Shown here piece by piece: positions 1-44,769 of a stretch of DNA of 45,334 nucleotides (positions are counted from its first letter, which is position 1; every line of letters begins with the position of its first letter). The notes under the pieces were generated by a model. It was not told the DNA's origin. It was given only the letters and a program-made list of their open reading frames with translations, and did no database searches. This DNA is from PVC group bacterium (GTDB lineage: Bacteria > Auribacterota > Erginobacteria > Erginobacterales > Erginobacteraceae), in contig JAZDIV010000114.1 in assembly GCA_043804695.1 (NCBI GenBank), positions 1 through 45,334 on the forward strand, given 5' to 3'. The position numbers and the translations under genes are program-made.

Positions 1-168
1 CATTGCGAGGAGCGCAGCGACGAAGCAATCTCATCATTTTGGATAAGAGGTGGTTATGAATGAAAAAATAGATTGCTTCGCCCCTTCGGGGCTCGCAATG
101 ACATTTTAGGGTTTACCGGACAGCCTCTTTAGGCTGCCACACGATGGCGACCTAAAGGTCGCCGCTAC
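1..168. mobile_element. Truncated 167-bp MITE copy (right end at 127) inside a GTAG-type REP doublet
   Basis: Near-identical to copies at 19361, 28723 and 37048. Ends CGGACAGCCTC + TTTA, then REP arms ending in CTAC at 165-168. Confidence 0.85.
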
Positions 169-303
169 GAGCACGAGGTACCGGGTTTACCGAATGTTTA
201 CGCCGGCGGAAATAGATCTTTAGCTGTAATTCATTGCCGGAGAGTTTGATAAAATCAATATCTTTTCGTGAGGCTGTTCATTTAAATTTTGTCATGGTTC
301 AAA

Positions 304-335
304 ACTAACCCGATTTATGAATAAATCGGGTTAGT
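304..335. repeat. Palindrome ACTAACCCGATTTAT-GA-ATAAATCGGGTTAGT
   Basis: Perfect 15-bp stem; second copy at 39554-39581. Confidence 0.8.
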
Positions 336-371
336 GCTTGTTCATTTTTATTTTTTCTACGAAAAAATAAA

Positions 372-1331
372 ATGGCGCAGTTAATCCCCATCCGCGAGTT
401 GAATCCCGACCGCGTTCCGGTCACCATCAAGGCGAGCGTGATCTCGCTCTGGTCGTCGCCCCGCGAATCGGTCGCCCGGGAGGGGCGACTGGAGGATGAG
501 ACCGGGATCATCCCCTTTACCCTCTGGGCCGGCTCCCCCATCAAGGACCTGGAGAAGAGGAAAAAGTACATTTTCCACCGGGCGGGGCTGGGGAAGATGG
601 ATGGAGAACTCAGGGTTCAGCTGGATGAGCTGACCACGGTCTACCCCGTGGATGAAGAAGCCGATGTCTATCGGACACTGCTCAAAATCACCCAGCTGGA
701 GCAGGCGGAGCGAAAACGGTTTGCAAAGGGCTCCCGGATAACCAAAACCGACCGGGCCCGGCCGAGCAGGAATAAGTTCAGCATCGTCATCGCCGCCGGC
801 GTTGTCATCTGGGCGGCGATCATGATCCTGGTCTTCACGGACCTGGTGACGGAGGAGAAGATCCGGAACTTCTTTCTGCAAAAACGCTCGGCCAAACGGA
901 CCGCCGCCGCCCGGAAATCGGCCACTATCTCCCGGGAGGGGACGGTCGAGGAGGTCCCGGAGGGCGGGGTTCTCCTGGTCCGGATCGGCGAGGAGCAGTG
1001 GACGATCTATTACCTGGGGCTGGAAGTTCCCCGGATGCCGGCCGAAAAGGGGGCGTCGATAGACCCGATGGCACTGCAGGCGCTGAACTTCAACAAGTTC
1101 CTGGCCCGGAACAAGACCGTCCGCCTGGAGTTCGAAGAAAGCCTGCCGCCGGAAAGCGGCGAGGGGCAGGCCTACGTTTTTGACGGGGAGAAGATGCTGA
1201 ACGCCGCCCTGCTTGAGCGCGGCCTGGCCCGGCTCACGGAGGCGGGGAAGAAACTGTCCTACGGCGAACAGCTGCTCCGGGCGGAAGAGAGCGCCCGGAA
1301 AGAACGAAAGGGGATCTGGCGGAAGAAATAA
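372..1331 (+). CDS. RPA-like OB-fold / TM helix / thermonuclease (SNase)-like fusion protein
   Basis: N-term VTIKASVISLW...GRLEDETGIIPFTLW (RPA-type OB fold); TM FSIVIAAGVVIWAAIMILVF; C-term AYVFDGEKMLNAALLERGLA...AEESARKERKGIW (SNase C-terminal motif). Confidence 0.8.
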   Translation: MAQLIPIRELNPDRVPVTIKASVISLWSSPRESVAREGRLEDETGIIPFTLWAGSPIKDLEKRKKYIFHRAGLGKMDGELRVQLDELTTVYPVDEEADVYRTLLKITQLEQAERKRFAKGSRITKTDRARPSRNKFSIVIAAGVVIWAAIMILVFTDLVTEEKIRNFFLQKRSAKRTAAARKSATISREGTVEEVPEGGVLLVRIGEEQWTIYYLGLEVPRMPAEKGASIDPMALQALNFNKFLARNKTVRLEFEESLPPESGEGQAYVFDGEKMLNAALLERGLARLTEAGKKLSYGEQLLRAEESARKERKGIWRKK

Positions 1332-1334
1332 ATG

Positions 1335-1793
1335 TTATCGTCTTTTATCCGGATGAAGCAGTTTGTCCAGAAGACGGAGGGCGTGCTCGACGTTGGCGGC
1401 CGGGATCACGCCCGGGATGTCCCAGGTCCCGATGCCGATGACCTTTTTCCCGGAATTCAGAGCGTAGCCGATTTCGGTCAGTGTCCCGTATTTCCCGTCA
1501 ACAGCGATCACCACTTCCCCCGACAGGGCGACGATCGCGTTCCGGGCCAGGCCGATCCCGGTCGCGATCGGGATGCCGACGTAGGGGTTGGCTGACGAGG
1601 GACGGTTCCCGGGGAGGATGCCGACCGTCTCTCCTCCCGCCTCTTTCGCCCCCCGGCAGACCGCCTCCATCACCCCGCCCAGGCCGCCGCAGACAACGGT
1701 CAGGCCGCGCTTCGCCAGCTCGCGGCCGAGTTCCTCGGCCGCGCGGAGTACCGCCGGATCAGCCCGGTTTCCGCCAATAACGCTAATTAGCAT
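1335..1793 (-). CDS. TIGR00725 family LOG-like Rossmann-fold nucleotide-binding protein
   Basis: ISVIGG, VVCGGLGGVMEAVCRGA, GILPG, ARN, GTLTEI motifs. Start moved to ATG at 1793. Confidence 0.9.
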   Translation of the reverse strand: MLISVIGGNRADPAVLRAAEELGRELAKRGLTVVCGGLGGVMEAVCRGAKEAGGETVGILPGNRPSSANPYVGIPIATGIGLARNAIVALSGEVVIAVDGKYGTLTEIGYALNSGKKVIGIGTWDIPGVIPAANVEHALRLLDKLLHPDKRR

Positions 1794-1861
1794 GCAAGGA
1801 TTTCTTATACGATTATAAGTTTGCCGGCGGTAAGGGAATATACAGGGTGCCAGATTGTAAA

Positions 1862-1997
1862 AAATTCTAAATCCTAAACAATATCTAATGACCAAAACAA
1901 TAAATTCAAAACAAAAGCGTCGATGGCCCGATGTTTTGAACATTTAAAATTTAGATTTAGAATTTATTTAGGATTTAGATATTAGGATTTAGGATTT
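1862..1997. repeat. Heptamer-periodic inverted-repeat element (AAATCCT / AGGATTT type)
   Basis: A-rich 7-mer units on the left arm, complementary T-rich units on the right arm. Confidence 0.75.
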
Positions 1998-2067
1998 CCT
2001 CCCATCACGAAGAAACAATCCGTTGTATGACCTGATCACACAATTTTCAACAAAACCAGGGATTGGA

Positions 2068-2871
2068 TCAGTCAGAGTCCGATTCGATCGTCGAGGTGAT
2101 GACTTTCAGCCTCTCGGTCTTGATCTTCTCTTCCCGGGAACCGCTGGTGGTGGGGATATTAATGACAGACGTCCCGTCCTTGTTCACTTTCTTGACAACG
2201 CCAACCCGGGTCTTGTTCCCGGTTGCCCACTGGACCAGATCGCCGATCTTAATCTCACTCATTGCTTCTTTCTCCTTTTTGGGCTCCCTCCGGGGAGGGG
2301 CCTTTTTGGTGGATTTAAACGACTGCCCGATATCCAGAGAGTAGACAATATCGCCCTGGTTCGGCTCTCGCTGTCCGATCTCCAGACGGATCAGCCCGTT
2401 CGGCCGGATAAAGGCCGCCAGAGACTGGCCGGCCGGCTTGAAGACCACCGCCTCTTCTTCGCCGTCGGCATTGAGGACAATGACCGGGGCCAGATCGTTC
2501 TTCCGGATCTCCTCCCGGTTCCCGTCCGTCGGGTCCGCCCCCCGCTCTCCTCCGGGTGAATTCAGCAGGATGACGTTGTAGGGGTTGGAGGTGGACTGGT
2601 AGCCCATGCTCTTCTCCCGCCGCGCGAACTCGAAGTTCCCGTCATCCTTTCCTCCCCGGTCGCGGTTGAACACCGCCACCATCAGCACGCCGCTCTGGCG
2701 GTTCTTGACCTCCCCGAAGGTATAGTACCCGGGCGCGATCAGGTGGTCGTTGTCGGCCAGGTATTCGGCCGCCGCATCCCCCCGGAGCAGCGCGGTGGAG
2801 CGGGCGCAGGAGAGGGAGAAGAGAACCGGGAGAATGAATGCACAGAGTTTCCAAAGATGGTTGTTATTCAT
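2068..2871 (-). CDS. Hypothetical lipoprotein with C-terminal KOW/SH3-like motif
   Basis: Lipobox-like LFSLSC; C-term IKIGDLVQW...GVVKKV. Confidence 0.65.
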   Translation of the reverse strand: MNNNHLWKLCAFILPVLFSLSCARSTALLRGDAAAEYLADNDHLIAPGYYTFGEVKNRQSGVLMVAVFNRDRGGKDDGNFEFARREKSMGYQSTSNPYNVILLNSPGGERGADPTDGNREEIRKNDLAPVIVLNADGEEEAVVFKPAGQSLAAFIRPNGLIRLEIGQREPNQGDIVYSLDIGQSFKSTKKAPPRREPKKEKEAMSEIKIGDLVQWATGNKTRVGVVKKVNKDGTSVINIPTTSGSREEKIKTERLKVITSTIESDSD

Positions 2872-5258: not shown

Positions 5259-5425
5259 GAGGCTGTCCGACAATTGGCATTTTTGCAAATTTCGCGGTCA
5301 TTGCGAGGAGCGAAGCGACGAAGCAATCTTAACCAATTGGGATATAGCTTATTCTGATCACGCTTTTAGATCGCTTCGCCCCTCCGGGGCTCGCTCTGAC
5401 ATTTGTGGGGTTGTCGGACAGCCTC
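5259..5425. mobile_element. 167-bp MITE (divergent copy) in a REP
   Basis: 15-bp perfect TIR GAGGCTGTCCGACAA / TTGTCGGACAGCCTC; flanked by REP halves GTAGAGGCGACC and CCGCCGCTAC. Confidence 0.85.
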
Positions 5426-19360: not shown

Positions 19361-19527
19361 GAGGCTGTCCGATAATTCAGATTTTAGGCATTTTAGAGGT
19401 CATTGCGAGGAGCGCAGCGACGAAGCAATCTCATCATTTTGGATAAGAGGTGGTTATGAATGAGAAAATAGCTTGCTTCGCCCCTTCGGAGCTCGCAAGG
19501 ACATTTCAGGGTTTACCGGACAGCCTC
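19361..19527. mobile_element. 167-bp MITE inserted in a REP loop (TTCA duplicated)
   Basis: GTAGCGGCGACC-TTCA-[GAGGCTGTCCG...CGGACAGCCTC]-TTCA-GGCCGCC; an empty REP GTAGCGCCGACCTTCAGGTCGCC sits at 19573. Confidence 0.9.
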
Positions 19528-22206: not shown

Positions 22207-23739
<1,533 letters not shown>

Positions 23740-23894
23740 CTTAAAATTTTTCTCCCGAGCCAGATGTCTGGTTTCCAGTGGTAGCCGCACTTTTTAAGGT
23801 GCGCGGCCAATTACAACCTTATAAATTCTACAATAATTTCTCATTCGAATTAACGATACCAAATTATAATACATCTACAATATTTTCCGACAAT

Positions 23895-24197: not shown

Positions 24198-27100
24198 TTA
24201 TCGTACAATAACTTGCGTTAACCGGGCCCCCGAAGATAGTTGTTTTTCGGTCCCACTTGAGGAAGTCGTGTTAGTCTTGATGGAAGTCGTTACTGCCGGT
24301 ACGCTTGCGGCAGTGGTCAGCGTTTTCGGCTGGATCGCTACTTCCTGCTGACGCGTAATGTTCTCCTCGATCCGGCGCGTCAGGTCCGACCCGTTGATAT
24401 CCGGCACACCCAACGGTTGTTTTACCACTCCATCCGGCTTGGTAACGCTCTGGTCCGGACCGTCGACAATACCGTCGACATCCATATCCCGTCCGCTATC
24501 CTCCGAGTCATTTGCATAAATCAACAATTCCACCTGGTGGGGAGCGGAATCCGAGCTGGCGAAGTGTTTTTCGGCCAGAAGCGATCCTTCCACCCGCCCC
24601 TTCAACAGGAGGCCGTGATTGGAGGAGGGAGAATCGATCCAGGCTTTGACCCAGGCGGTGATATCCAGGGTCAAAGTACCGCCGCGGTTCACGGTGGCAT
24701 GGAGCGTGGGCGTAATCATGGGGTTGTTAATGAAACCGGGCTGGTTTTTCCAGGTGACGGTATTCTCCCCCCAGGGACCGCCGCTCAACAGGTGGGCGCT
24801 GATTTCCAGGGGCGTACCGTCCCAAACGTCCCCGGTCTCTTTCAGACACAATATCGCCTGAGACAATCTACTGGAATTGGAAAATCCGGAAAAATCGAAC
24901 TGGATCAGTGTCCGCATGCTCCCGTAAATCCCGGTTTTTATCTTGAGCAAGGAGGGGTCTACCCTCCCAAAGGGGGTGGAGGGAGTATAACTTGATACAT
25001 AAGCGTCCTGCATCGGACTGAGAATCTGGGAAGGATAATGTTCGGAATCGGAAGGGATGCAGCTGTCGGGGTCGTTGGGGTCGGTGCCGTCCGCCACCTC
25101 CTGACCGTCACCCACCCCGTCCTGGTCGGAGTCGGGAGAAAAAGGATCAGTCTCGTGCTGTATTTCCTGATTATCGTTCAGTCCGTCACTGTCGGTATCC
25201 GGATTTACGGGATCGGTGTGAGTGTTGTAGAGCTCCTCCCCGTCGGTGAGACCGTCCCCGTCGCTGTCAGCTCTAAGCGGATTGGTCCCCTTATCGAATT
25301 CGGTTTGGTTGGAAAGCCCGTCACTGTCGGGGTCTTCTCCCCAGATGTGGGAGCCGCCGAAATAGTCTTCCCAGTCGGCCGCGCTGGTCGGCCAGGACAG
25401 CGAATTGTACGGGTCGGAATCATATTTGTACTCCGCTTCATCCGGCCAGCCGTCCCGGTCGCTGTCCAGCTTGGGATTATCAAAAGAAAGGTAGTAGCTG
25501 ACCTTGCCCAGCAGTTCGTTAAGATCAGAAACTCCGTCACCGTTAGAATCCCGCAAAGACGGGTCGAATCCCAATATCTCTTCGCCGATATCCGCCAGCC
25601 CGTCGCCGTCGCCGTCCAGCGGCACATCGGCGCTCTTCCCCACCTGGAGGCTCCCGTCGCCGATGATATTGAAGATAGCCCCCGGATCTCCGTAGGCCAT
25701 GGAAAAATTGAAGCGTCGGATTGTCGATTCGCCGATATAAGCGTAATAGTCGATCAGGCTCCAGAACCGTCCGGCATCGGGGGAACGAATGGTAAAGAGG
25801 TCCCAGCTGTGGATGAGGGGGGAACCCATGGCCGCCGCTGGGCGGCTAGTCTCGGAGTTGATCGTGTTCATCACCAACGAATAATTTCCGCCGTCCGCCC
25901 AGTCACCGCAGCCGCACCCGGCGTAAAGAACCAGCTTGGGCCACTCATTGCCGGACCCATGGAAATACGCTTCGTCGTATCCAAATTCCCCGCAATACGT
26001 AGGGGTGCCATGGGCCGAATAGAGAAAGGCATGGGACCGGCGCTGGTAATAGGAATAGGCGGTCGCCTGCGTGCTCGCCCCTAAAAAGCTTGTGATGGAA
26101 TCGAAGGCGGCGGCGAAATAACGGGAGGTAACGCAGGACCAGTCGGCGTCGGTGGTATCATGGACAAAATATCCATCGGCGGAATCCTGGACGATATAAT
26201 CACTCAACAACCGGTTCCTGCCATAACGGTCGAAAACACTGCCGCTTATAGAATCATTACAGTTATAGGTAGCGTAGCGTGAGACCCAGGCTTCCAGGAA
26301 ATAATATTTGCTCGGTCTTTCGTCGGACATATGATGGATTCCATCCCCGTTCTCGTCATTCCACTTTTCCCCAAACAGGTTTCCATACATATGATCGGTC
26401 GACCCTTCACCCGAATACCCCGGCCAGCACTCGTTGACCTCGAAATGAGGTATTCCCCGCCCCACTAAAATGATCCCTTTTATCTCCTCCTGACCGGCGC
26501 CGGTAATATAGGTTATATACAGGTTTCTGATCCGATCCTGCAGTTGCTGTTTGTTCTCTCCCAGATAGCGGATCGTGTACACTTTTTTGTACTGGCTGAA
26601 TAGCCTGACATGATTCGCCCAGCGGCCGAGGGATGGATTGTCATAAAAGGAATCTTCCGCCACTATCAGAACGGCGGGAACGGTGTGAGGCTTGCTGTTT
26701 TTATCCGCCGGATCCGTCCCCAGGTATAAAGCTTCCAAACCGTCCTGATAGCCGTCGTTGTCAGTGTCGATATCCCAGATATCAAGCTCCAGTTCAACCT
26801 CCTCATAAACAGTAAGACCATCACCATCCGTGTCTTCAGAGCCATCTTCCGGATTCTGCGGGTCTAATTCATGGTCCAACTCCCACCCGTCGAGCAAGCC
26901 ATCCCCGTCCTGATCGGGATTGTGGGGATCCAAACCATAGATAAATTCATCCAGATTGGACAGTCCATCCCCATCGCTATCCAGCTCACCGTCACCGGAA
27001 TATCCCGGGTCGAGTCCGTTCTCTTCTTCCCACCCGTCATCCATGCCGTCATCGTCCAGGTCGGAATCGTATGCCCCGTGAGCCGGAGAAGTCATCTCCC

Positions 27101-27509
27101 GGTTATAGTATGTCGCTCCATCTTCAGCTACAAATAATTCTATTTCCCAACTATCTTCCGGGAACCTAGTCGGCAGATATACCACACTAATCCGCCCGCC
27201 GTCATATTGAAGGGTTAAGGTCCGGCCGGCGTAGAGAACCAGCGGTTCGCCATATAACCAGATAGACACCGGTTCGGGAGAATCAAGAGCCTCACCATCG
27301 TGAAAATTGCCCTGATACCAAGAGCCCAACTCTGTCACACTCGTATATCCGTAAATCTGCATTTCAATGCCCAGATCGGGCGGGATATTGGTTGTTAGAT
27401 TTTCCAGATCCTCGACATACAGAGGATCGGTGGCCGGGGCCGGGGCGGGGAACAGAGCGAGAAGAAGCAGGAACAAAGACCCCAGTAACAATGCTTCAAA
27501 TCTTTTCAT
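24198..27509 (-). CDS. Secreted multidomain protein: DxDxDG Ca-binding (TSP3-like) repeats, peptidase C25 (gingipain)-like domain, DNRLRE/CBM96-like domain
   Basis: Signal peptide at 27509; many DSDGDG repeats; GIILVG..IP, EAWVSR, SAHG, YAGC, NIIGD motifs; QDAYV...RTLIQFD...LDITAWV. Confidence 0.8.
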   Translation of the reverse strand: MKRFEALLLGSLFLLLLALFPAPAPATDPLYVEDLENLTTNIPPDLGIEMQIYGYTSVTELGSWYQGNFHDGEALDSPEPVSIWLYGEPLVLYAGRTLTLQYDGGRISVVYLPTRFPEDSWEIELFVAEDGATYYNREMTSPAHGAYDSDLDDDGMDDGWEEENGLDPGYSGDGELDSDGDGLSNLDEFIYGLDPHNPDQDGDGLLDGWELDHELDPQNPEDGSEDTDGDGLTVYEEVELELDIWDIDTDNDGYQDGLEALYLGTDPADKNSKPHTVPAVLIVAEDSFYDNPSLGRWANHVRLFSQYKKVYTIRYLGENKQQLQDRIRNLYITYITGAGQEEIKGIILVGRGIPHFEVNECWPGYSGEGSTDHMYGNLFGEKWNDENGDGIHHMSDERPSKYYFLEAWVSRYATYNCNDSISGSVFDRYGRNRLLSDYIVQDSADGYFVHDTTDADWSCVTSRYFAAAFDSITSFLGASTQATAYSYYQRRSHAFLYSAHGTPTYCGEFGYDEAYFHGSGNEWPKLVLYAGCGCGDWADGGNYSLVMNTINSETSRPAAAMGSPLIHSWDLFTIRSPDAGRFWSLIDYYAYIGESTIRRFNFSMAYGDPGAIFNIIGDGSLQVGKSADVPLDGDGDGLADIGEEILGFDPSLRDSNGDGVSDLNELLGKVSYYLSFDNPKLDSDRDGWPDEAEYKYDSDPYNSLSWPTSAADWEDYFGGSHIWGEDPDSDGLSNQTEFDKGTNPLRADSDGDGLTDGEELYNTHTDPVNPDTDSDGLNDNQEIQHETDPFSPDSDQDGVGDGQEVADGTDPNDPDSCIPSDSEHYPSQILSPMQDAYVSSYTPSTPFGRVDPSLLKIKTGIYGSMRTLIQFDFSGFSNSSRLSQAILCLKETGDVWDGTPLEISAHLLSGGPWGENTVTWKNQPGFINNPMITPTLHATVNRGGTLTLDITAWVKAWIDSPSSNHGLLLKGRVEGSLLAEKHFASSDSAPHQVELLIYANDSEDSGRDMDVDGIVDGPDQSVTKPDGVVKQPLGVPDINGSDLTRRIEENITRQQEVAIQPKTLTTAASVPAVTTSIKTNTTSSSGTEKQLSSGARLTQVIVR

Positions 27510-28124
27510 TCTTTCTCCTTTTATAGCTTTTAGGCCTCGATCACTCCCGGCCTTCTCTTTGAACCTGTTTTCCCTCTTTTTCTCAGGGAAGATCGAAAAT
27601 TTTCTCGTCACTATTGTTTGTTTATGAAGCAAATACAGTGCCAAGTTTTCATTTTCATCAGGCGTATTTTCACAACCACTTCTCTGTCAAGTAAATAAAA
27701 ATTACAAAGGCGATTCGCAGCTTCAGTTTTAAGACTGTAAAATACTCAATTATTGACAACTATGGTTTACAGGTAGCAATTCTGGTTTACTGAATACGTC
27801 AAGAAAGAGGTGTTTTCCCCGGATGACCGGGGAGAAATTCAGGCGGCGGGATTCTTGCGGCCGGACTATTTTAGCCCGGCTGCTTTTTATGTCTCCCTGC
27901 AGGTGTTTGAGGCCAATCTGAGGTTTCCGGGGCAAACCTTTCCTCTCCGCAAATGGGATTATCTTGCTGATATTGCTATCTGGCCGGACTTTTGAGAATC
28001 CAGTATCCAGGCGCTTATTCTCATCTATTCTCCCTTTTGATCGGGAAGGATAATAGCTATGTCGCCGCGTCAAAAATCTGCTGAGTGCGCCGTGTCAAAA
28101 TCCCTGAAATTAAAATAGGCAAAG

Positions 28125-28722: not shown

Positions 28723-28889
28723 GAGGCTGTCCGATAATTCAGATTTTAGGCATTTTAGAGGTCATTGCGAGGAGCGCAGCGACGAAGCAATCTCATCATT
28801 TTGGATAAGAGGTGGTTATGAATGAAAAAATAGATTGCTTCGCCCCTGCGGAGCTCGCAATGACATTTTAGGGTTTACCGGACAGCCTC
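28723..28889. mobile_element. 167-bp MITE in a REP doublet (TTCA duplicated)
   Basis: Same TIRs; host REP doublet spans GTAG at 28707 to CTAC at 28930. Confidence 0.9.
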
Positions 28890-32725: not shown

Positions 32726-32770
32726 CCCTTATTTAACATTTAAGGTAAAGCGTTATTTGTTAAATAAGGG
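32726..32770. repeat. Y1-transposase-associated hairpin, copy 1
   Basis: CCCTTATTTAACA-tt-TAAGGTAAAGCGTTA-tt-TGTTAAATAAGGG; contains the transposase stop codon. Confidence 0.9.
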
Positions 32771-33696
32771 TTTTGGTTTTTTTGTTTTGCGAGCACTGCA
32801 TATACGGTCGGGTATGAACTATCGAGGTAGTCCGCAATCTCCCGGGCGGAGAACCCTCTCGACTTCAGTTGCAATACGGCATACTCCCTGGCTCTGATAT
32901 CCCCCGGTTCAGTCAGTCTTCTCTTCCCCTTCAGCCGTTCAACTGCTTCGTCCAGTGCTTTATCACACGTGTAACCCTCAGCTAATATCTTCTCTTCCTG
33001 GATCGCCTGTTTATTCTCAAATACTCCGGGAAAATTTTTATGAAGCCATGTACTGAACTTACCGATAACTTTCGTATCTTCTGTTATCTCTCCGGCTTTA
33101 TAACCTCCGGATTTATCCAAGAGATTGATATATTTATTTTTTGCCCGGGTGATATCTTCATTGAGCATCCGTAAAATAAAATTGTAATCCACGAAACTGT
33201 CCGGTTGTCGGGGTTGGCAATATAATTGCCAGGATGACCACCGGTATGAGGAGTAATGCCTCACTATGCCGGCGCGTACGGGGTTCATATGAATATAGAT
33301 CGAAGCGGCCAGTAAATAATAATCGTCAAAACAAGCCGCCTGACGAAACGGTCCACAGAAAAGATGACCGATTCTATTATACTTATTATTGAAATAAATG
33401 GCGTATCGCGTGAAGAGATTATGCATCGATTCCGATAAATTTTCCTGGAGTTGCTTGATTAAAATATGGACATGATTTTGGAGCAGGCAAAACGCTAAAA
33501 AGGTGAGGTCATAATCTTCTTTCAACTCTTTGAGCAATTTAAGCATATACAAGTAATCCGCGTCTTCGACAAAGAGCAATCCCTTCCCGGCCGCCCGCTG
33601 GGTAATATGAGAAATTAATCCCGGGAAACTAAGCTTCCGTCTGGCTCTGAAGTACCGCTTAATCTTCCCCTGTCGTATTAGTTCTAATACATCCAT
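32740..33696 (-). CDS. Y1/HUH transposase (IS200-like / RAYT) with C-terminal HTH
   Basis: HITQR, AFCLLQNHVHIL (HUH), GHLF, YIHMNPVRAG (catalytic Tyr), YRWSS; C-term GFSAREIADYL. Confidence 0.9.
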   Translation of the reverse strand: MDVLELIRQGKIKRYFRARRKLSFPGLISHITQRAAGKGLLFVEDADYLYMLKLLKELKEDYDLTFLAFCLLQNHVHILIKQLQENLSESMHNLFTRYAIYFNNKYNRIGHLFCGPFRQAACFDDYYLLAASIYIHMNPVRAGIVRHYSSYRWSSWQLYCQPRQPDSFVDYNFILRMLNEDITRAKNKYINLLDKSGGYKAGEITEDTKVIGKFSTWLHKNFPGVFENKQAIQEEKILAEGYTCDKALDEAVERLKGKRRLTEPGDIRAREYAVLQLKSRGFSAREIADYLDSSYPTVYAVLAKQKNQNPYLTNNALP

Positions 33697-36979: not shown

Positions 36980-37303
36980 CGTAACACTTTAGCTCTTTGA
37001 AATTATAAGGTTACACTGAACGTATCTCCTCGTAGCGGCAGCCTTTAGAGGCTGTCCGATAATTCGGATTTTAGGCACTTTAAAGGTCATTGCGAGGAGC
37101 GCAGCGACGAAGCAATCCCATTATTTTAGATAAGAGGCGGTTATGAATGAAAAAATAGTTTGCTTCGCCCCTTCGGGGCTCGCAATGACATTTCAGGGTT
37201 TACCGGACAGCCTCTTTAGGCTGCCACCTAATGGCGACCTGAAGGTCGCCGCTACGAGCAGGGCGAGATCATGGTTATAATTTCAAAGAGCTAACGTGTT
37301 ACG
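36980..37303. mobile_element. MITE with 29-bp TIRs and target duplication, carrying a REP doublet
   Basis: CGTAACACTTTAGCTCTTTGAAATTATAA / TTATAATTTCAAAGAGCTAACGTGTTACG (1 mismatch); CTTTTC on both flanks. Confidence 0.85.
37048..37214. mobile_element. 167-bp MITE in a REP loop (TTTA duplicated)
   Basis: GTAGCGGCAGCC-TTTA-[element]-TTTA-GGCTGCC. Confidence 0.9.
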
Positions 37304-43261: not shown

Positions 43262-44119
43262 TTAGTTAAGCTCGGCCAGCCGGTTTAGTTGATGAAGGAA
43301 CAGGTCCGGTCCCCACAGGGCCAGGCTCTCTTGTTCCCGGGCGACGACAAAGCGCATGACATCAGTCCTCGCCTTATCCCAGTCGATCGTCTCAATACGG
43401 TTTTTCATCGTCGCCTGGTACCACTCCGGAGTCACCCTGACGCCCTGCCCGACCCAGTGCCCCTGTTGATCCAGCGCATTGCCGAGAAGCGCCAGATCAG
43501 GAACAACCTTCCTGGAAACGTACCAGAGAAAATCGTACCAGTCTCTTCCCTTGGTGTACTCCCGGCAGAGCAGGGCGTGGGACTTGGTCGCAAACCCGGA
43601 TTTGAGGGTCTGGGTCGTAATCGCCGCGGTCAACGGGAAGTCAATGTATCTGGTCTCAAAGAGCGACCCGGCGGGAGGATTGGTGTCGATCTCAAGCTTG
43701 ATCCTGACCTTCCTCGTTGCGTGGCGCGAAAAGGGAAGTTTCAACGTCAGGATCTGACCTATCGAGTCGGTCTTGATAAAAGCCTTCTTGACCGCCGTCT
43801 CCTCGCTGGACCTGTCCCGGACCTCGAAATGGATGCCTTCATCCCGGCAATCCGACAGGATTCGGTCGAGATAGGGCCTCCACTTAAAGTCAGGATTCGG
43901 CTCTTTCAGCAGAAAATCCAGGTCTTCGGAGAATCTGTTCATGCCGTAGAGAATCCGCAGGCACGTTCCGCCGTGGAAACCGGCCTGCGAATAAAACCGG
44001 GCCCGTGAGAGACTGGCGATAACAAAGTGCTGCAGCAACTCGGCCAGAACGTTCTCCTGCTCCAGCGCATTGGCCGGGGAATAGTCCCGGATTCTTTCGC
44101 TGAGGATGTCTCCGATCAT
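43262..44119 (-). CDS. abiEii: AbiEii-family nucleotidyltransferase toxin (type IV TA)
   Basis: FHGGTCLRILYG..RFSEDLDF, IKLEID, KGRDWYDF. Confidence 0.93.
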   Translation of the reverse strand: MIGDILSERIRDYSPANALEQENVLAELLQHFVIASLSRARFYSQAGFHGGTCLRILYGMNRFSEDLDFLLKEPNPDFKWRPYLDRILSDCRDEGIHFEVRDRSSEETAVKKAFIKTDSIGQILTLKLPFSRHATRKVRIKLEIDTNPPAGSLFETRYIDFPLTAAITTQTLKSGFATKSHALLCREYTKGRDWYDFLWYVSRKVVPDLALLGNALDQQGHWVGQGVRVTPEWYQATMKNRIETIDWDKARTDVMRFVVAREQESLALWGPDLFLHQLNRLAELN

Positions 44120-44769
44120 CGTCCGATCTCCGCTCTCAGTCCATCGAGAAATACCCTGGTCCGTTTGTTTCTTATACTATTATAGACTTCATCGAACTCT
44201 TCCAGTGGGATATCACGAAGGTCCTCTTCTTCAATCCGCATCGAAGATTTCAGAAACCTTAATCCATCCTTCTCCCAGGTTATATCCTTCCGGAGATAGA
44301 TCAGGTCAGCAATGGCTCGCCAGGGGCCGGCGACAAACGCCCATCCATGTTCATCGACTTTAACTGACCGGACACCGGCTCGGGGATCGTTCGTGGGAAC
44401 TCGCTGAAAAATAAAATCTCCCAGCGGTGTGTGGAATGATCGACTGCGTTGTGCTGTTACGCTGGTCACCTGGTAGACGGCTTCGGGGATCAATCCATGA
44501 TATGAGAGTGCAGACTCAAGGCTGATATGAGAAGGTGAATGAAGCAATGGAGCCACGACAAATGGGTGCGGATGGGTTCTTCGATACGCCTCGGCCAGGC
44601 AATAAAGTCCAGGCTTGAGCCTGAGTACTTCCATTTTATTCACGGCGCGGTGAACGAGTAATTTTCGTGCGTCAGCCGAAGTTCCCAGGAAGAGATTCCG
44701 CACCCCGGCGTCATCGAAGATCCCGCCCGGAGGGTTAAGCTGGTAAACTTTCTCGGTCAGCGTCTGCAT
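44116..44769 (-). CDS. abiEi: AbiEi-family antitoxin / transcription regulator
   Basis: RLKPGLY, PSHISLESALSYHGLIPE, A...RAIAD; overlaps the toxin start. Confidence 0.9.
   Translation of the reverse strand: MQTLTEKVYQLNPPGGIFDDAGVRNLFLGTSADARKLLVHRAVNKMEVLRLKPGLYCLAEAYRRTHPHPFVVAPLLHSPSHISLESALSYHGLIPEAVYQVTSVTAQRSRSFHTPLGDFIFQRVPTNDPRAGVRSVKVDEHGWAFVAGPWRAIADLIYLRKDITWEKDGLRFLKSSMRIEEEDLRDIPLEEFDEVYNSIRNKRTRVFLDGLRAEIGR

Follow-up and report, generated by a model that had tools for sequence, protein, structure and literature searches.

Catalysis by staphylococcal nuclease (SNase) needs the residues D21, R35, E43 and R87, and in the eukaryotic protein Tudor-SN the domains of this fold are non-catalytic, protein-binding modules. 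A distinct layout is that of ToxR and CadC, in which an inner nucleic-acid-binding domain is joined by a single transmembrane (TM) segment to an outer sensor domain. Nuc2 of Staphylococcus aureus is a type II anchored SNase, found to face outward by PhoA fusion (PMC3994088). In Haloferax volcanii RPA3, a single oligonucleotide/oligosaccharide-binding (OB) fold of the RPA group binds single-stranded DNA (ssDNA) alone, and the equivalents of its residues F120 and Y144 are named as central to ssDNA binding (PMC3438722). Here we describe a gene in which these elements are brought together. It lies in a window of 45,334 nucleotides that constitutes the whole of contig JAZDIV010000114.1 (assembly GCA_043804695.1, a PVC group bacterium of the family Erginobacteraceae, phylum Auribacterota), where an open reading frame (ORF) at 372..1331 of the forward strand, with an ATG start, encodes a 319-aa protein. 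This protein begins with an RPA-type OB fold, continues through a helix and a basic linker into its only TM helix, and ends in an SNase fold devoid of the usual catalytic residues; we refer to it as OB-TM-pseudoSNase.

OB-TM-pseudoSNase is a conserved single-pass membrane protein of one Auribacterota order, and its domain architecture is new: the component folds are known and their combination was not previously described. No description of an OB-TM-SNase architecture was found in the literature searched (supplements not covered), and a term search in the main Auribacterota paper (PMC9324843) returned no mention of nuclease, competence, OB-fold or DNA uptake. An initial annotation, made from the letters of the window without database searches, had given exactly these coordinates and this start, and had described an RPA-like OB fold joined through a TM helix to an SNase-like domain; hydropathy, the AlphaFold2 model and the Foldseek comparisons agree with that description, and the N-terminal start MAQL/I is common to the homologs. 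The AlphaFold2 model, computed from a 19-sequence family alignment, has a mean predicted local distance difference test (pLDDT) value of 80 and comprises an OB barrel (residues 17-93), a helix (96-122), a disordered stretch (123-135), the TM helix (136-155), a further helix (161-183) and the SNase fold (186-317). A full-length homodimer prediction with two copies gave a score of 0.00, with controls not run, and is evidence neither way.

The N-terminal domain belongs to the RPA-type OB folds, as initially annotated from its resemblance to archaeal RPA. With phmmer against the PDB, residues 17-98 matched the OB domain of Methanosarcina mazei MM0293 (2kbn_A/2ken, E 4.1e-11), and a ten-member family profile matched 2kbn with E 1.4e-13; the motifs KA.VI.LW and G.L.DETGII.FT.W, which had been quoted as RPA-like, are present and aligned in this match to 2kbn/2ken. 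The NCBIfam model 'replication factor A' (NF005553) matched residues 3-102 with E 2.4e-15, over positions 71-170 of its 311; the score of 56.7 bits lies below the cut-off of 353, and the protein is thus not a full-length RPA made of an OB fold plus a zinc-finger C-terminal domain. Structural comparison led to the same assignment: in the full model the OB domain superposes on 2ken with a root-mean-square deviation (rmsd) of 1.4 A over 79 columns, and when modelled alone it reached a pLDDT of 85 and a template-modelling score (TM-score) of 0.79 to 2ken. Together with its C-terminal helix, the OB domain is laid out in a way reminiscent of the trimerisation core of RPA. The OB-only model produced 36 PDB matches at E<=0.001, and those listed are all nucleic-acid-binding OB folds (MM0293, Ta0387, RPA70, Sulfolobus SSB, POT1, Teb1, hSSB1, Pyrococcus abyssi RPA and HIN domains).

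This OB type is archaeal in its distribution among the genomes compared. Of 14 named control genomes, NF005553 matched the 4 that are archaeal and none of the 10 bacterial ones, and in the gene's own genome only OB-TM-pseudoSNase was matched. The nearest OB-only relatives are multi-OB proteins, of which 12 of the 15 scanned exceed the curated 'replication factor A' cut-off. The bacterial single-stranded DNA-binding protein (SSB) model PF00436 gave no match in the protein at E<=10, and the bacterial SSB of this genome is encoded elsewhere (contig C142). A homology search with residues 1-125 returned 16 hits, all from the family itself; in the protein atlas, residues 1-185 gave only sub-0.9 leads to OB/SSB-like clusters and no other membrane-anchored RPA-like OB family.

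To compare residues, 22 family OB domains were set against 63 archaeal RPA OB segments. Common to both are G38, D42, G45, F49, W52, L60, Y66 and G78, with W52 kept in 95% of the family, and position 27 is aromatic in both sets. E37, R70 and G74, each present in at least 95% of the family, are seldom seen in the archaeal segments. The family OB keeps the core motif of RPA, along with three of four conserved aromatics, and has gained an invariant arginine. With an inferred offset of +68 from the protein to the 311-position RPA profile, the counterpart of W52 would be F120 of HvRPA3, and that of position 76 would be Y144 of HvRPA3 and F79 of the Sulfolobus SSB. From these columns and the ssDNA binding of the single OB fold in RPA3, single-strand nucleic-acid binding appears the most likely activity of the OB domain, although not a secure one, and DNA binding by it is plausible.

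The C-terminal domain has the SNase fold, an OB-type barrel with three helices. The Pfam model PF00565 matched residues 215-317 (E 1.5e-10; 41.9 bits against a gathering cut-off of 21), phmmer returned many staphylococcal nuclease chains from the PDB with E of about 3e-9, and Foldseek superposed the domain on SNase structures with TM-scores of 0.80-0.84 and an rmsd of 2.7-3.1 A over about 136 columns. The catalytic motifs are missing, with the three substitutions initially described: EGGV stands in place of DGDT, YYLGLEVPR in place of R35..D40-T-P-E43, and ESGEG (residues 261-265) in place of K-Y-G-R87-G. We mapped SNase numbering through HMMER alignments onto the 23 family members, and for comparison onto 3 paralogs from the same order and 10 ordinary SNases; the loss extends to all 23 members. 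The calcium ligand D21 is present in 0/23, with glycine in 21; R35 is kept in two members, as is the general base E43; and neither Y85 nor R87 is kept in any, the latter position being occupied by glutamate in 16 and by aspartate in two. P42 is invariant (23/23), the D40 position is acidic in 22/23 and the D19 position carries D or E in 16/23. The catalytic residues of the 10 ordinary SNases are mostly intact. The domain is also outside the thermonuclease NucI equivalog, whose model NF047694 scored 44.3 bits over residues 168-316 against a cut-off of 250. The protein is, as judged from these residues, almost certainly not a nuclease, and the label 'thermonuclease family protein' that homologs carry is misleading.

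SNase-only matches from four same-order genomes provided an internal comparison, with the ORF read in three of them (G018, G021 and G016). All three paralogs are separate SNases bearing both a signal peptide and a lipobox cysteine, and in all three the full catalytic set is intact (IDGDT, RFLG(V/I)(N/D)(S/A)PE and YGR(R/T)LAY); therefore, the catalytic loss is specific to the fusion, and old. No such lipoprotein paralog was found in the gene's own genome, which is 88% complete. At one paralog locus (L020), the gene is convergent with that of a secreted 280-aa protein (1615-2457, minus strand) in which a metallo-beta-lactamase-like HxHxDH motif was recognized by eye.

The former active-site loops of the fusion are themselves conserved, as glycine, proline and acidic residues (G198, G199, G216, P220, P260 and G263), which suggests a retained pocket with new chemistry rather than decay; given this composition, the DNA backbone is a less likely ligand than a cation, a metal or a partner without phosphate. 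The loss of both phosphate-binding arginines and the frequent glutamate at position 87 speak against nucleic-acid binding at the former site, and DNA binding by the outer domain thus seems doubtful. The net charge of the domain was considered as an indicator of DNA binding and rejected, since the pseudo-nuclease domain and the active paralogs are equally acidic. PADLOC gave only a weak generic SNase match (SNc+LTD, E 6.8e-5, 20 bits) and no specific defence model, and no match of the protein to phage families was obtained in PHROGs.

A single strong hydrophobic segment connects the two domains. Residues 138-156 have a Kyte-Doolittle mean of 2.79, the next best window reaching 0.64, and each of the 23 members has one such segment (mean 1.8-3.0 over 19 residues), within which S137, I138, I140, G143, W147, M151 and L153 are conserved. 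The net charge of the 15-residue N-terminal flank exceeds that of the C-terminal flank in 21/23 members, with one tie and one reversal, and the helix plus linker on the inner side have a median net charge of +7. No N-terminal signal peptide precedes the folded 95-aa OB domain, and the alignment of the NucI model begins just after the TM segment. Because of these flank charges and the precedent of Nuc2, a type II orientation (N-in/C-out) is quite probable, which would place the OB domain in the cytoplasm and expose the dead nuclease on the outer side; that the two domains would lie on opposite sides of the membrane had also been proposed in the initial annotation.

The architecture is rare and confined to one lineage. 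A word-indexed search of 5.8 billion proteins returned 23 cluster representatives. Nineteen of them, 315-339 aa long, cover at least 98% of the query, and the other four are partial, with 49-78% coverage. The three with a named source come from Ca. Euphemobacter frigidus, Ca. Erginobacter occultus and a Ca. Auribacterota bacterium, and all three bear the thermonuclease label mentioned above; the fusion does not constitute a curated family. An exhaustive search of 1.84 billion representatives yielded eight matches at E<=1e-30, all of the same architecture and two of them truncated; beyond this set only RPAs or SNases were found, and the two domains did not occur together in any alternative order. 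Five proteins matched in two stretches (P0036, P0043, P0045, P0037 and P0144) were discarded as fusions, being tandem active SNases or multi-OB RPAs. Furthermore, in a survey of 79 Auribacterota genomes the fusion was full-length in all 14 genomes of its own order (families f1-f4), with 40-82% identity, and absent from the 65 others, among which 21 gave SNase-only matches. Within this one Ca. Auribacterota order, the fusion is a single-copy core gene.

With the integration of these findings, the function that fits best, and to which we give an even chance, is that of a non-catalytic, type II membrane tether or transmembrane coupler with a ToxR-like layout. The OB domain, carried on its helix and basic linker, would be held against the cytoplasmic side of the membrane and would there bind single-stranded nucleic acid, DNA or RNA; the outer pseudo-nuclease, no longer able to cut, would act in the periplasm as a ligand-binding or docking module, for a cation, a metal or a non-phosphate partner more likely than for the DNA backbone. 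The protein would thereby hold single-stranded nucleic acid at the membrane and link it to something bound outside. Earlier, it had been considered a membrane-spanning nucleic-acid binder whose outer domain is a non-cleaving DNA-binding module. Of this proposal, the membrane-spanning character, the loss of the catalytic set and a plausible nucleic-acid binder on the inner side are retained, and the DNA-binding role of the outer domain is put in doubt by the missing R35 and R87.

Several points weigh against a tether or coupler. The loop residue at position 76 is aromatic in 5% of the 22 family OB domains compared with 98% of the 63 archaeal segments, and because of this loss the affinity of the OB domain for ssDNA may be weak or absent. 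Both juxtamembrane segments are basic, with a median net charge of +7 inside and +4.5 outside, so the positive-inside argument is good and not overwhelming. The neighbourhood gives no functional partner among the neighbours listed for eight loci, a selection of which was scanned. Finally, all the functional steps are drawn from sequence and models, and the analogy with ToxR is one of layout only.

The main rival, ahead of a role in uptake and then of a non-canonical nuclease, is a re-purposed scaffold, in which neither domain binds nucleic acid and both serve as modules for binding proteins or envelope components, for example in envelope biogenesis. Such a scaffold would account for the family-wide remodelling of both the SNase active site and the OB loop aromatic, for the replacement of archaeal residues by the family-invariant E37, R70 and G74, and for a TM helix that is unusually conserved (S137, I140, G143, W147 and M151), as if packing against a partner. 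It would also suit neighbours of envelope and housekeeping type, such as a TPR/PMT_2 protein found in five loci and a lipoprotein-like ORF, and it has a parallel in Tudor-SN/SND1, the top Foldseek match by E-value, which uses inactive SNase domains. However, the OB domain keeps the G-x-L-x-D-E-T-G-x-I-x-F-T-x-W motif and the aromatics W27, F49, W52 and Y66, and it has gained positive charge (R70 and K75), which is hard to explain without a nucleic-acid ligand; moreover, synteny that is conserved inside a single order says little about a functional link. We regard the scaffold as unlikely, although it is the strongest of the competing explanations.

Somewhat less likely still is an accessory role in competence, with the outer domain holding DNA near ComEC and the inner OB domain receiving the incoming single strand. 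Both folds derive from nucleic-acid-handling families, and the genome has ComEC plus five matches elsewhere to HHH_3 (PF12836, ComEA-type), a model without a match in the fusion protein. The initial annotation had pointed to comM in the same window as a sign of DNA uptake or sensing, an argument that fails: the comM/YifB-type gene (22207-23790) lies 21 kb away on the opposite strand, in a mutL-miaA-hflX-mreBC-PBP2-rodA housekeeping block, and no competence gene is placed beside the fusion gene in the eight loci whose neighbours were listed. Standard ComEC is present in 76 of the 79 genomes of the phylum, with or without the fusion; the genome already has ComEA-type receptors and a normal SSB; and the outer domain has lost R35 and R87, the latter replaced mostly by glutamate.

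A remaining lead for uptake is a second, large ComEC-like gene, additional to the ordinary ComEC of about 800 aa, whose distribution partly mirrors that of the fusion. It occurs in 13 of 14 same-order genomes (about 1270-1310 aa) and in 5 of the 65 genomes outside the order (as forms of 1096-1172 aa). In the gene's own genome it belongs to an uptake-type cluster on contig C117, where the 1280-aa protein combines a DUF4131 OB and a Competence domain with about 700 extra C-terminal residues and no fused lactamase, accompanied by two ComEA-like HHH_3 proteins (104 and 105 aa), by a metallo-beta-lactamase of 305 aa encoded separately and by a weakly matched DHH-family protein. Nevertheless, the co-distribution is confounded by shared ancestry, and five genomes carry the large gene without the fusion. 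A more speculative extension, to which we attach slightly less credence than to uptake in general, is a two-sided nucleic-acid relay peculiar to this order, in which the outer pseudo-nuclease docks on DNA or on the order-enriched second ComEC-like machine and the archaeal-derived OB domain takes over the strand; equally, the protein could be a ToxR-like sensor with a ssDNA- or RNA-binding OB output. If the relay were true, the protein would be a membrane-resident strand acceptor, which to our knowledge is not known in any transformation system.

Residual nuclease activity through non-canonical residues, with the acidic positions D19, D40 and the R87-to-glutamate replacement binding metal, is very improbable. 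The SNase fold is intact by Foldseek and an acidic cluster persists at these three positions, the last being E or D in 18/23; against this, E43 and R35 survive in two members each, D21 and R87 in none, and the same-order paralogs keep the full set, which makes the loss specific to the fusion. As for a chance ORF or an assembly artefact, the gene begins 371 nt from a contig start made of a dispersed repeat, and that reading is already refuted by full-length homologs (40-82% identity) inside contigs of up to 551,948 bases, by the presence of the gene in all 14 genomes of the order and by the confident folding of both domains.

The protein offers a clear example of an archaeal RPA-type OB fold taken over by a bacterium for a non-replicative, membrane-bound use and paired with a pseudo-enzyme, an active paralog of which persists in three same-order genomes. 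Should the OB domain bind nucleic acid in its membrane setting, OB-TM-pseudoSNase would represent a new type of bitopic nucleic-acid-binding membrane protein, acting as tether, sensor or accessory to uptake; should neither domain do so, two classic nucleic-acid folds would have been re-purposed together. The lineage is uncultured, and the impact is therefore limited to heterologous biochemistry.

Regarding the genomic context, the first 30 bases of the window are one copy of a dispersed repeat, CATTGCGAGGAGCGNAGCGACGAAGCAATC, with five exact copies in the window against 0 expected by chance, and 104 copies (up to 2 mismatches) in the 2.97-Mb genome, compared with 0 for a reversed-pattern control. 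Many of these are no more than 100 nt from a contig end; therefore the repeat breaks the assembly, and, since the contig ends at it, the upstream context of the gene is missing in the window. On the minus strand of the window, at 32740-33696, a 318-aa protein with a Y1 transposase domain of the IS200-like type is encoded; it might be the REP-associated transposase that goes with this repeat.

In related loci the gene is situated between a divergent TPR (partly PMT_2) membrane protein gene and convergent housekeeping genes, the convergent neighbours being a SLOG-cluster4 protein, the lipoprotein-like ORF (267 aa), ilvC and a corrinoid adenosyltransferase. In the window, the convergent gene (1335-1943, minus strand) encodes a SLOG cluster4 protein (LDcluster4/DprA-like Rossmann), found also in L002; the SLOG domain that it has in common with PsyrA and ShosA accounts for its weak PADLOC matches to these two. 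A tRNA-Met (CAT) gene precedes the fusion gene in 7/7 related loci scanned; in the window this region is cut off by the contig end. In the six loci where the tRNA is directly upstream, a GC terminator hairpin with a T-run is followed by a -10-like element, which by eye, in the upstream alignment, has a TG extension in five of the six. Given the divergent upstream gene, the convergent downstream gene and the tRNA terminator followed by a -10-like element, the gene forms its own, monocistronic transcription unit. No conserved operator-like motif was seen in the upstream alignment beyond the tRNA, the terminator and the -10 element. A hairpin before the start codon, with a T-rich tract about 10 nt after it, is shared with the closest relative and not found in more distant loci; it is a candidate upstream terminator or 5' leader structure. 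An Rfam scan of window positions 1-2100 gave nothing above the gathering score. Among public sequencing runs, a search with window positions 250-1450 listed no RNA run and one DNA run (share 0.06), and is uninformative on expression or habitat.

Other features of the window include ribosomal protein L21 (5638-6222, minus strand, 194 aa), which is prolonged at its C-terminus by about 75 residues with a high content of lysine, alanine and proline. At 43262-44769 (minus strand), an AbiEii-type nucleotidyltransferase toxin of 285 aa is preceded by a 217-aa ORF without a Pfam match, and the pair is probably an AbiE-type toxin-antitoxin system. In a lower-GC stretch (24198-27644, minus strand; GC 0.49-0.56), a protein of 1148 aa combines bacterial TSP3 repeats with the carbohydrate-binding module CBM96. 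The coordinates of the fusion gene, its parts and the related elements are collected in Table 1.

Table 1. Coordinates of OB-TM-pseudoSNase, its segments and associated elements. Positions refer to the window unless another locus (L) is named.
Feature	Position	Strand	Basis or remark
Whole coding sequence, OB-TM-pseudoSNase	372..1331	+	319 aa plus stop; full-length homologs 40-82% identity
OB fold, archaeal RPA-type, residues 3-95	378..656	+	predicted cytoplasmic; NF005553, 2kbn, OB-only model
Long helix after OB, residues 96-122	657..737	+	model; conserved E110, R114
Disordered K/R-rich juxtamembrane linker, residues 123-135	738..776	+	pLDDT <50; charges
Single TM helix, residues 136-158	777..845	+	hydropathy, model, conservation
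Basic helix on the outer face of the membrane (predicted), residues 161-183	852..920	+	low-confidence model; charges
SNase-fold domain without catalytic residues, residues 186-317	927..1322	+	predicted extracytoplasmic; PF00565, Foldseek, residue table
EGGV, residues 197-200, at the place of SNase D19-G20-D21-T22	960..971	+	residue table
YYLGLEVPR, residues 213-221, at the place of SNase R35...D40-T41-P42-E43	1008..1034	+	alignment, residue table
SGEG, residues 262-265, at the place of SNase Y85-G86-R87-G88	1155..1166	+	alignment, residue table
Hairpin with 14-bp stem	304..335	+	37 nt before the start codon; kept in closest relative L002
Dispersed 30-nt repeat	1-30, 5299-5328, 19401-19430, 28763-28792, 37088-37117		exact copies
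tRNA-Met (CAT)	L003 9756-9830; equivalents in L002, L004, L007-L010	same as gene	upstream of the gene
Lipoprotein SNase paralogs	L019 706-1398; L020 about 930-1628; L022 630-1346	-; +; +	C-terminal extension of about 60 aa
Uptake-type cluster, own genome, contig C117	L025 4732-12011		1280-aa ComEC-like, HHH_3 x2, metallo-beta-lactamase, weak DHH

When compared with known systems, OB-TM-pseudoSNase resembles each in one part and departs from it in another. It shares with ComEA a single-pass anchor and an outward domain from a DNA-handling fold; however, ComEA has a helix-hairpin-helix and no cytoplasmic domain, and the fusion lacks HHH_3. As in Tudor-SN (SND1), which supplies the top Foldseek matches by E-value, an SNase-fold domain may serve as a binding module, but Tudor-SN is eukaryotic, soluble and tandem, includes a Tudor domain and has only 12-14% identity to the fusion. 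With ToxR and CadC the likeness is that of a cytoplasmic N-terminal nucleic-acid-binding domain, one TM segment and a periplasmic C-terminal sensor; the winged helix is missing from the fusion (no Pfam match), and there is no homology. The OB fold itself is closest to the archaeal RPA group PRK07217/NF005553, whose members include H. volcanii RPA3, M. acetivorans RPA3 and M. mazei MM0293 (2KEN/2KBN), with 30-33% identity, an rmsd of 1.4-2.1 A and a shared core motif, F49, W52 and Y66. Unlike these proteins, the fusion has neither the zinc-finger C-terminal domain nor the N-terminal dimerisation region, and it is membrane-anchored, bacterial and without the position-76 loop aromatic. Finally, Nuc2/NucI (NF047694) has the same succession of an N-terminal signal-anchor and an outward C-terminal SNase fold; yet Nuc2 is active as a nuclease and its N-terminus is short, whereas in the fusion the catalytic residues are lost family-wide and a predicted cytoplasmic OB-plus-helix module of 135 residues precedes the anchor.

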